Part shown: positions 22,201-61,719 of the stretch, in pieces | Numbering within the stretch: the stretch's first letter is position 1 | Layout of the letters: every line of letters starts with the position of its first letter | Origin: Clostridia bacterium | GTDB lineage: Bacteria; Bacillota; DTU086 | Reading direction: 5' to 3' | Assembly: GCA_012523575.1 (NCBI GenBank) | Contig: JAAYIF010000039.1 | Span: 3,084 to 67,083 of the forward strand | DNA length: 64,000 bases | Notes under the pieces: model-generated | Database searches by the model: none | Told to the model about the DNA's origin: nothing | Seen by the model: only the letters and a program-made list of their open reading frames with translations | Position numbers and translations under genes: made by a program

Positions 22201-22303
22201 GCCTTAACCTCCGGCAGCATGATGGTACTTTATTTTATGAAATAATCTTTTTACCTGTTCCAGGAGCCAAAGGCCATGAAAAAGGCGCCAGAAAATGGCG
22301 CAT

Positions 22304-22513
22304 ACACTGTGGACAAACATTTTTTTTGCTGGATCTCTGCTGCAGTTTGCGAAACGACTTAACGAACGTCGATTAAAACCGGAAGGCGCGAGCATGGACG
22401 CTCGCGCCAGCCAGTCTCTCGCACGGACGCCGAATTTGGGGCAGCCCGGTTTAAAGCGGCGTGAGGTTAAGGAGTGAGAAAACTGCAGCAGAGAACCTTT
22501 GTCTACAAGACAA
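22304..22513 (+). repeat. Structured intergenic repeat, copy C (subtype I); core 22334-22493
   Basis: acactgtggacaaacat ... tctctgctgcagtttgcgaaacgacttaacgaacgtcgattaaaaccgg ... ggcgcgagcatggacgctcgcgcc ... gacgccgaatttgggg ... gagaaaactgcagcagaga ... cctttgtctacaagacaag. Confidence 0.9.
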
Positions 22514-22547
22514 GCGCCGTGTTGGCACTTTTTTGGTATGAACCCGG

Positions 22548-24030: not shown

Positions 24031-24247
24031 ACAGACTGTAGATAAACCTACCTACTAACTAAATTATTATTAGTCTCTGCTGCAGTTTGCGAAACGACTT
24101 AACGAACGCTAATTAAAACCGGGAGGCGCGAACAGGACGTTCACGCCAGCCAGTCTTTCGTACGGCCGCCGAATTTGGGGCAGCCAGGTTTTAATCAGCG
24201 TGAGTTCGCAAGTCAAGAAAACTGAAACAGAGACCCTTTATCAATAT
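24031..24247 (+). repeat. Structured intergenic repeat, copy D (subtype I, slightly degenerate right terminus); core 24074-24233
   Basis: acagactgtagataaacc ... tctctgctgcagtttgcgaaacgacttaacgaacgctaattaaaaccggg ... ggcgcgaacaggacgttcacgcc ... gaaaactgaaacagaga ... ccctttatcaatat. Confidence 0.85.
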
Positions 24248-24251
24248 ATTC

Positions 24252-29970: not shown

Positions 29971-30211
29971 AGACAGACTTTCGGCAAATCATCTTAGTTA
30001 ATCTCATATGGTCCCTGCTGCAGTTTGCGAAACGACTTAACCAACGCCGATTAAAACCGGGAGGCGCGAGCAGAAGGTGAGCGCCAGCCAGTCTCTCGCA
30101 CGGACGCCGAATTTGGGGCTGTCTTGTTTTGCCCATAACACTACGCTTAGAGATGTCCGGCGTGAGTTCGCTAGTCAAGAAAACTGCAGCAGAGGCCCTT
30201 TGTGAACAAGC
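29971..30211 (+). repeat. Structured intergenic repeat, copy E (subtype II); core 30012-30194
   Basis: agacagactttcggcaaatc ... tccctgctgcagtttgcgaaacgacttaaccaacgccgattaaaaccggg ... gacgccgaatttgggg ... ttttgcccataacac ... aaactgcagcagagg ... ccctttgtgaacaagc. Lies about 75 bp upstream of the murJ start. Confidence 0.9.
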
Positions 30212-30254
30212 TCAAAGGATTTCCACATATCTGCTCTTGCTACTTTAGAAATCC

Positions 30255-41368: not shown

Positions 41369-41395
41369 TTCCCCCCAAATAAATGAAGCTTTCTT

Positions 41396-41609
41396 ACTAT
41401 AGACAAATCATCTCAGAAAGTTCCATGAAGTATCTGCTGCGGTTTGCGAAACGACTTAGGAACGCCAATTAAAACCGGGAAGCACGGGCAAGAACGCTCG
41501 CGCAAGCCTCAACCTGAGGCACGGACGCCGAATTAGGGGCGGCCCGGTTTTAATCGGCGTGAATTCGCAAGTAAAGAAAACCGCAGCAGATGCCCCTTGT
41601 CAACAAACC
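41396..41609 (+). repeat. Structured intergenic repeat, copy F (subtype I, divergent middle); core 41431-41592
   Basis: actatagacaaatcatc ... tatctgctgcggtttgcgaaacgacttaggaacgccaattaaaaccggg ... gcctcaacctgaggc ... gacgccgaattagggg ... cccggttttaatcggcg ... gaaaaccgcagcagatg ... ccccttgtcaacaaacc. Confidence 0.85.
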
Positions 41610-41619
41610 GGCTTTAATG

Positions 41620-42726: not shown

Positions 42727-42870
42727 AAAAAAACCCTCCCCACAAGCTGCTGAATTCTCAAAAAAAAAGAAAAAGCAGACTCAATTTACTTTATTATAAT
42801 TTATATTTTAGCACTTATTCAAAAAACCTTCGCTTTTTTTAAAAGCTCAGCTGGAGTAGAAATCTTCTTA

Positions 42871-43087
42871 AACAAATCTTTATTAAGTCTCTGCTGTAGT
42901 TTGAGAAACGACTTAACGAACGCCGATTAAAACCGGGAGGCGCGAGCATGGACGCTCGCGCAAGCCCAGTCTCTCGCATGGACGCCGAATTGGGGCGGCC
43001 CAGTTTTAAGCGGAGTGAGTTTCAGGAGTAAGAAAACTACAGCAGAGACCCTATGGGATTTGCTAAGATAACCTGTCTACAGTCTGC
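42871..43087 (+). repeat. Structured intergenic repeat, copy G (subtype I); core 42888-43047
   Basis: tctctgctgtagtttgagaaacgacttaacgaacgccgattaaaaccggg ... ggcgcgagcatggacgctcgcgc ... gacgccgaattgggg ... gaaaactacagcagaga ... tgtctacagtctg. Compensatory gTag/cTac changes in the terminal stem. Confidence 0.88.
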
Positions 43088-61376: not shown

Positions 61377-61414
61377 AAAAAAAATAATCCCTTAAAGCCA
61401 AAAAATTTTGGTCT

Positions 61415-61678
61415 GCTTGTTGACAAACGTTATCTGCTGCAGTTTTCTCACTCCAGAACTCACGCCGGACAGCTCTAAACAAAGCTTAAAAGCAAAACCG
61501 GACCGCCCCAAATTCGGCATCCGTGCCTCAGGTTGGGGCTGGCGCCAACCTCCTGTTGGCGCCTCCCGGTTTTGCCTTACGCTTTGCCAAGAGCTGTTAG
61601 CCGGCGTTCGTTAAGTCGTTTCGCAAACTGCAACCGATACCTCATGAGATTTACTAAGGTAGTTTGTCTAAAGTCTAG
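61415..61678 (-). repeat. Structured intergenic repeat, copy H (subtype II, the only inverted copy); core 61431-61639
   Basis: On the + strand: gcttgttgacaaacg ... tatctgctgcagttttctcactc ... gcaaaaccgg ... ggcgccaacctcctgttggcgcc ... ccggttttgc ... ggcgttcgttaagtcgtttcgcaaactgcaaccgata ... gtagtttgtctaaagtctag. This is the reverse complement of the consensus. Confidence 0.85.
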
Positions 61679-61719
61679 CCAAAATTTTGGTTTTAAGGGA
61701 AAAAAACAAAGGTGGAAAA

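Follow-up and report, generated by a model that had tools for sequence, protein, structure and literature searches.

TwoAYGGAY-type repeats in a clostridial lineage carry the marks of small mobile elements, some of them between duplicated terminator palindromes

MITE-like repeats that fold as RNA are known from several groups of bacteria and include bcr1 in the Bacillus cereus group, Correia/nemis, ERIC and RUP/BOX. Insertion sequences of the IS1182 family are recorded in ISfinder with direct repeats of 0-60 bp. One member of this family, IS1272, is directed to terminator hairpins and palindromes, depends little on primary sequence and cuts within the stem (PMC4923244). The structured motif TwoAYGGAY, which has been in Rfam since 2010 (RF01731), was described as probably a non-cis-regulatory RNA whose closing stem is "often very large", with a P1 of 24 bp (Weinberg 2010), and gut-metagenome copies in the published alignment have rods of about 60 bp (PMC2864571). 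Its loops have been matched to the CsrA site (Gardner 2014, PMC4333381), and a 2025 preprint still treats the motif as unexplored. The Psychromonas ingrahamii copies in the published alignment sit amid other tandem repeat units (GUAACACGCCGUCAGGGCGGAAGACCAACAA...) (TwoAYGGAY.sto, PMC2864571), so that TwoAYGGAY is found in repeat-rich DNA of gammaproteobacteria too.

Here we analyzed a repeat present in a 64,000-nt stretch of DNA from a Clostridia bacterium (the window); the source is a MAG of Clostridia / Peptococcaceae type from an uncultured organism. An earlier note on this DNA had named eight copies, A to H, and a direct-repeat search together with a profile search found all of them and exactly eight in the window, seven of them on the + strand (A-G) and only H on the - strand (Table 1). 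In copy C, the terminal stem delimits exactly the segment flagged there (22334-22493), the ends of which are formed by the 5′ and 3′ arms of this stem. At full length an element measures 210-265 bp and is gene-less; its neighbors are all housekeeping genes, among them recD2, a miaB-like gene, hpf, phosphoglucomutase, murJ, ddl, and asd. The note's view that the repeat is non-coding agrees with our data, as the copies are intergenic, are without a conserved ORF and are separated by 1-nt indels. We rejected a coding reading given that these indels break the frames and that the sole ORF over a copy (17512-17757, at B) is not shared; identity as a tRNA or tmRNA was also rejected.

Table 1. Positions of the eight repeat copies in the window and of the parts and flanks of copy C.
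Feature	Position	Strand	Remarks
Copy A, long form	15666-15924	+	recD2 / miaB-like divergent spacer
Copy B, only 5′ arm shortened	17478-17717	+	between two diverged ~23-bp copies of hpf terminator palindrome
Copy C, whole element end to end	22303-22512	+	end motifs; nhmmer 22329-22507, E = 1.9e-54
Copy D, short form, terminal stem broken on 3′ side (AAACTGAAAC)	24032-24251	+	
Copy E, only 5′ arm shortened	29974-30213	+	clean insertion vs L116; duplication about 5 bp
Copy F, short form, hairpin 2 canonical	41393-41610	+	GCTTT on either flank; Rfam 36.5 bits
Copy G, short core	42848-43086	+	left-end-type terminus and spacer at both sides; Rfam 31.1 bits
Copy H, canonical long form	61413-61677	-	Rfam 73.6 bits at 61456-61613
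Copy C, hairpin at left flank, GGCGCC-AGAAAA-TGGCGC	22284-22301	+	one of two diverged PGM-gene terminator palindrome copies
Copy C, left terminal inverted repeat TACACTGTGGACAAA	22303-22317	+	family consensus CAGACTGTAGACAAA
Copy C, terminal stem 5′ arm TCTCTGCTGCAGTTT	22334-22348	+	partner 22480-22494
Copy C, near-invariant 5′ box GTTTGCGAAACGACTTAACGAACG	22345-22368	+	invariant alignment columns
Copy C, second stem 5′ arm ACGTCGATTAAAACCGG	22366-22382	+	partner 22445-22462
Copy C, hairpin 1 GGCGCGAGC-ATGGAC-GCTCGCGCC	22385-22408	+	AYGGAY loop 22394-22399
Copy C, hairpin 2 region	22411-22441	+	ACGGAC loop 22423-22428
Copy C, second stem 3′ arm CCCGGTTTAAAGCGGCGT	22445-22462	+	
Copy C, terminal stem 3′ arm AAACTGCAGCAGAGA	22480-22494	+	
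Copy C, right terminal inverted repeat TTTGTCTACAAGACA	22498-22512	+	family consensus TTTGTCAACAAGCTG
Copy C, hairpin and T-run at right flank, AGCGCCGTGTTGGCAC TTTTTT	22513-22534	+	second terminator palindrome copy

We assign the repeat family to TwoAYGGAY with high confidence. The curated gathering score of RF01731 is 43 bits, which is exceeded in the window by copy H alone and among relatives by six copies (L125c, 71.4; L126c, 66.1; L123b, 59.8; L121c, 53.7; L122c, 49.7; and L104c, 48.8 bits). Copy C remained below the threshold (30.8 bits, E = 0.85, 22347-22482), as did the six other window copies, owing to the deletion of a stem segment and an altered hairpin 2; of these seven, C, F, and G were the three that gave a score (30.8-36.5 bits), and they nonetheless align end to end on the model with the same architecture. 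The repeat shares with the published motif the three-way junction, two AYGGAY hairpin loops (both found in C), tandem G-A in a stem, a long P1 as very long closing stem, covariation, and occurrence in Clostridia, and differs from it in having an outer stem, inverted repeats, target duplications, and mobility, which go beyond the published description in the literature searched. Elsewhere in the window, 18410-18783 (-) matches the cspA thermoregulator model (RF01766) with 54.1 bits, below its threshold of 78; the match covers a cold-shock-domain gene and its leader, for which L116 and L118 have annotations at the corresponding place. T-box leaders and three tRNA genes in the relatives' contigs (L104 1543-1770, +; L120 164-387, -; L037 4074-4309, +) are unrelated to the repeat.

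The region 22334-22497 of copy C has a predicted folding energy of -83.4 kcal/mol (z = -7.9 vs dinucleotide shuffles), and copy H one of -115 kcal/mol (z = -9.6). We built alignment A2 from the eight window copies and eight further full copies found in related genomes and metagenomes. The A2 structure, a rod with two hairpins, comprises 86 pairs, and 88.5% of its cells are standard pairs, a proportion that falls to 35-41% when partners are slid by 1-3 columns. Thirteen pairs (35 cells) are changed on both sides across the 16 copies, which confirms the claim of the earlier note that compensatory changes preserve the stems. When RNAalifold was applied to the eight window copies, it gave 45 pairs, six of them with compensatory double changes. 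None of 500 shuffles, which ignore relatedness, reached the observed cell count or covariation score. The 6138 remaining pairs of variable columns served as a null that shares the phylogeny; covariation was stronger in the annotated pairs (Mann-Whitney p = 3e-7), 3 of which, out of 16 testable, rank among the 25 highest column pairs against an expectation of 0.07. Covarying pairs are found in the terminal stem (A2 columns 61/271, 69/263, and 70/262), in the second stem (96/235 and 98/233), in hairpin 1 (143/152; AU 9, GC 4, GU 3) and in hairpin 2 (174/183; GC 10, AU 6). At 70/262 there are A-U, G-U, and G-C states, with G-U as the intermediate, and L104c alone has adjacent double substitutions at columns 92/239 and 94/237. 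From the aligned sequences, several of these events look independent. The covariation signal is real in aggregate and weak per pair, as the alignment holds 16 full copies, several of them related. The sequences come from metagenome assemblies.

The individual stem sequences given in the earlier note were mostly correct. The terminal stem reads GCAGTTT/AAACTGC in A, C, and E, and also in H, GCGGTTT/AAACCGC in B and F, and GTAGTTT/AAACTAC in G. The type I sequence quoted for the second stem is present as a consensus, from which single copies deviate by 1-3 mismatches. For hairpin 1, the quoted forms hold for C, for D (GGCGCGAAC-AGGAC-GTTCACGCC), for H (GGCGCCAAC-AGGAG-GTTGGCGCC), and for A, B, and E, which have a 5-bp stem and a 13-nt loop, but not for G, which ends in ...GCGCA and has lost the closing pair. 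The 5′ box is near-invariant, in contrast to its variable 3′ partner strand, and is found again in the Pelotomaculum thermopropionicum copies of the published TwoAYGGAY alignment (PMC2864571 supplement).

Both tip hairpins share one build, in which a tandem G-A is followed by a short helix and a GGA loop; in H, Watson-Crick pairs replace the G-A. Most long copies have the loops CAGGAG and ACGGAU or ACAGGAU, and hairpin 1 no longer carries its GGA in A, B, E, and F. Both AYGGAY loops, ATGGAC and ACGGAC, are retained in copy C. Hairpin 2 of this copy has a weak stem with the 5′ arm CCAGTCTCTCGCA and not CCCCAACCTGAGGCA, the canonical form being the one aligned to the Rfam model in H, and as a result of this alteration the minimum-energy fold buries the second GGA. 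The short copies C, D, F, and G are missing ~25 nt from each rod arm (A2 columns ~99-125 and ~206-229). We infer that copy C is a shortened, partly decayed derivative. In B and E the rod segment is missing from the 5′ arm only, indicating that the short form arose stepwise and that the second deletion restored the rod. In the 3′ arm of the short copies, the sequence AATC, which is absent in the long form, pairs perfectly with GATT of the 5′ arm; this hints that one arm may have been templated by the other, or that the short form is an older, ancestral one. In one copy outside the window, L123a (L123 877-1199), a 45-nt insertion separates the terminal stem from the right end.

Each copy has terminal inverted repeats, which the rest of the window lacks. 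The left end reads CAGACTGTAGACAAA; the right end, TTTGTCAACAAGCTG, agrees with it at 12 of 15 positions when reverse-complemented to CAGCTTGTTGACAAA, and a conserved A/T-rich spacer of ~25 nt adjoins the left end. The second, inverted left end of copy G is at 43072-43086, and the two-sided spacer of this copy is probably the ancestral symmetric state. We compared the insertion sites with those of syntenic relatives, in which the PGM protein is 90% (L116 and L128) or 80% (L118, L119, and L127) identical. Gene order is kept in these relatives, and empty sites were found for A and E (L116), B (L116 and L118), C (L118 and L119), and H (L127 and L128); only site C is filled in L116, and no site is filled in L118, L119, L127, and L128. 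Spacers at the compared sites are 277-394 bp long in the window vs 55-120 bp in relatives, and the spacer at site D is 277 bp vs 84-108 bp.

The target duplications were of two kinds. At plain A/T-rich sites they are 5 bp long, as seen at A (AAAAA in the orientation of the element, TTTTT otherwise), E (about TCTTT), and F (GCTTT), and the duplicated bases of A and E occur once in the empty sites of L116. At terminator sites, a single palindrome is present where the element is absent; where the element is present, the central 15-26 bp of the palindrome occur twice and abut the two element ends. Thus, site B in L116 and L118 has one hairpin only, the empty site C in L118 has a single hairpin, the orthologous filled site in L116 has 18-bp direct repeats, and copy H is inserted at the center of the azlD terminator palindrome, 15-17 bp of which are duplicated (ACCAAAATTTTGGCT). 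Flanking direct repeats measure 21 bp at L121c, 24 bp at L104c, 22-24 bp at L123b, 18 bp at L116c, and ~23 bp at B. When scored for similarity, the two flanks of a copy reach up to 42, compared with a mean of 11.5 and a maximum of 23 for 178 mismatched flank pairs. Cuts at terminator sites are symmetric around the center of the palindrome. These data show an insertion preference for A/T-rich sites and for the center of terminator palindromes; insertion at the center duplicates the palindrome, so that a hairpin is left on each side.

Small size, lack of coding capacity, terminal inverted repeats, target duplication, and empty sites are the features by which MITEs are recognized, here with a duplication whose length differs with the target (5 bp if plain, 15-26 bp if palindromic), and we have good confidence that the element is mobile. 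The link to transposition drawn in the earlier note is therefore borne out. Its analogy to IS200/IS605 is not, since that family lacks both terminal inverted repeats and target-site duplications. Precise excision between the long direct repeats could in principle also give rise to empty sites; however, filled sites number 0 of 5 and 1 of 6 in two relatives, and insertion in this lineage is the simpler reading. Two further observations concern the same sites. L125c (L125 733-1009) is 99% identical to H (61407-61683) and shares its upstream flank, while the downstream flank differs and there is no duplication; this may reflect recombination between copies or another real rearrangement, or a chimeric metagenome contig. 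In L116 (16240-17905) and L118 (15879-17513), an amino-acid permease gene lies between hpf and the miaB-like radical-SAM gene; it is absent from the window (17248-17754), where copy B occupies that junction.

No parent element or transposase with matching ends was found in the window or in about 20 relevant loci. The element ends CAGMYTGTWGACAAA ... TTTGTCWACARKCTG would be suited as a query for such a parent. A scan of a genome collection with the 16-mer GTTTGMGAAACGACTT returned 115 loci, mostly chance matches, with real ones in L037 and L104 only. We saw no TnpA (Y1 HUH) or TnpB beside the copies, where the flanking genes are all housekeeping, no fixed motif shared among the flanks examined, and no blastn match of copy H in plasmid and phage collections.

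The strand bearing the AYGGAY loops is predicted to fold better than its complement, with mean folding energies of -96.1 vs -84.9 kcal/mol (favored in 14 of 16 copies) and consensus folds of -122.8 vs -109.5 kcal/mol. There is also a modest excess of G-U over A-C cells (72 vs 56). G-T wobble and sheared G-A pairs form in DNA as well. The strand asymmetry and the build of the tip hairpins point to a folded single strand of AYGGAY polarity and to a dimeric binding partner, and they fit RNA as well as single-stranded DNA; we lean slightly toward RNA as the selected form. In a scan for promoters and terminators near the copies, nothing exceeded the shuffled expectation, and inspection of the left-end spacer by hand revealed only weak -35/-10 look-alikes on either strand and no convincing promoter for the AYGGAY strand. 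In tandem-gene contexts this strand is antisense to the host genes at 7 of 9 independent sites, a trend that is not significant; an RNA of that strand would thus need its own promoter, and the trend could reflect selection against sense insertions. At copy A, a good promoter-like sequence (TTGGAA-18-TATAAT) is present at 15946-15975 (-), with the copy located between this site and the recD2 start; judging from this arrangement, copy A is probably transcribed antisense within the recD2 leader.

The claim that selection acts on a folded single strand, either an RNA or a DNA hairpin, is supported by the match to RF01731, by the better folding of the AYGGAY strand, and by the mobility of the repeat. 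The two forms have to be weighed against each other. If the selected fold were single-stranded or cruciform DNA recognized by the mobilizing enzyme, in the manner of IS200/IS605 hairpin ends, integron attC sites, or parvovirus terminal repeats, the resemblance to an RNA motif would be a by-product. We consider this unlikely, although several observations are in its favor: the element is mobile and a near-palindrome over its whole length, its targets are themselves hairpin-forming palindromes, its structure is kept in copies without a fixed relation to host genes, and the AATC pairing in the short form hints at one arm templating the other. Like IS200/IS605 and REP/REPIN sequences, which depend on folded single-stranded DNA hairpins, the repeat is non-coding and shows an orientation bias, with 7 of 8 window copies in one orientation. 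GC skew is strongly negative over the entire window (1-64000; -0.11 to -0.21) and the - strand carries nearly all genes, which places the window in one replichore with the - strand leading. However, the 7 vs 1 orientation relative to replication is not significant, and in 7 of the 8 copies the lagging-strand template exposes the complement of the better-folding strand, which weakly disfavors a model based on single-stranded DNA at replication forks. Moreover, IS200/IS605 elements insert 3′ of a fixed 4-5 nt motif and, like REP/REPIN, have neither terminal inverted repeats nor target duplication, whereas the inverted repeats and the fixed 5-bp duplications at non-palindromic sites found here speak for a DDE enzyme that works on duplex ends, and the family is curated in Rfam as an RNA with covariation. 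A further possibility is that there is no selection on the fold, and that the paired changes come from homogenization of the arms at the DNA level, through arm-to-arm conversion or hairpin-primed repair, or from subfamilies founded as perfect palindromes. Most covarying pairs are in the long rod, which is a plain inverted repeat; several double changes divide the copies between two clades, so that each may go back to one event (96/235, 7 vs 7); and just 3 annotated pairs are among the top 25 column pairs. Yet the small local hairpins covary too, H exchanges the tandem G-A for Watson-Crick pairs, the adjacent double substitutions of L104c belong to a single lineage, and the G-U intermediates, the strand asymmetry, and the conservation of the loops, of the 5′ box, and of the motif across phyla in Rfam also speak against this explanation, which we consider improbable.

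Two other explanations retain RNA and assign it a different role. In one, the copies are a host-serving sRNA family that titrates CsrA in the manner of CsrB or RsmZ, and their multiplicity is due to gene amplification. The SELEX consensus of CsrA is RUACARGGAUGU, and hairpin 2 of several copies (ACAGGAUGU) comes near it. As in CsrB, RsmY, and RsmZ, GGA is found in hairpin loops, here two, with the two sites spaced for a CsrA dimer, and a CsrA hypothesis has been published for TwoAYGGAY (PMC4333381). In contrast to those sRNAs, which have many sites, each RNA here would have two GGA sites at most and several copies have lost one; the element is mobile, with insertion signatures and a copy number that varies from eight in the window to 0-1 in close relatives over the same genes; no promoter was found, and most copies are antisense to local transcription. 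A tblastn search detected no csrA gene, an uninformative result given that the DNA searched is a small part of the genome. We regard a host-serving sponge as improbable, and CsrA would be an unlikely specific binding partner of the repeat. In the other explanation, the repeat is a SINE-like, retro-mobile RNA element that is copied through RNA and relies on target-primed reverse transcription for its insertion. Duplications varying from 5 to 26 bp, A/T-rich targets, and a strand-specific conserved fold would be compatible with such a mechanism, but the variation in length is explained by the palindromic targets, the duplications at non-palindromic sites are all 5 bp, the ends are inverted repeats, and neither 5′ truncations, an A-tail, nor a reverse transcriptase was seen, making this origin very improbable.

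On balance we slightly prefer the explanation that the copies are selfish, non-autonomous mobile elements with a TwoAYGGAY core, consisting of a long imperfect rod, a three-way junction, and two hairpins with GGA loops. Such an element would be moved in trans by a DDE-type transposase, which may attack palindromic, perhaps extruded, hairpin-forming targets with staggered cuts that are symmetric; one candidate for this role is an IS1182-like enzyme. Insertion of IS1272 removes part of the hairpin without any duplication, whereas the element described here duplicates the palindrome, and neither an IS1182-type transposase nor matching ends were found in the loci examined; the link is thus a lead. 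The internal fold may have been kept because propagation, or tolerance by the host, depends on the folded single-stranded AYGGAY strand, most likely as RNA, and the two similar GGA hairpins may give a dimeric RNA-binding protein two docking sites. The repeat resembles bcr1, Correia, ERIC, and similar families in being small, gene-less, intergenic, and multi-copy, with inverted repeats, short duplications, and a stable predicted RNA fold, and some of those families also show compensatory changes. It differs from them in its unrelated sequence, in a curated core that is shared across phyla, and in the duplication of whole terminator palindromes. In the literature searched we found neither a function nor a mobile context for TwoAYGGAY, nor MITEs that duplicate terminators; the hairpin targeting of IS1272 was the one relevant case.

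While the motif itself was known, its presence within a mobile, gene-less element that duplicates terminator palindromes is new here. TwoAYGGAY acts as a mobile element in this lineage, with insertions that are polymorphic among close relatives, and this context offers a route for its study, through the transposase, the requirement of the fold for movement, and the binding of protein to the two GGA hairpins. Insertion at the center of a palindrome would be a "safe landing" strategy, with a terminator-like hairpin on both sides. There are practical consequences as well, as the Rfam threshold misses 7 of the 8 window copies, and such repeats, usually unlabeled, may break metagenome assemblies. 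More tentatively, TwoAYGGAY may be, not an ordinary host sRNA, but the conserved core of a class of non-autonomous transposons that home to and duplicate terminator palindromes, with the fold kept for their own spread. If this is true, the fold would be needed either as a transposition intermediate or as a protein-recruiting RNA, and a motif that has been an orphan for 16 years would take its place beside HEARO and IS605-orfB among the structured nucleic acids carried by transposons.
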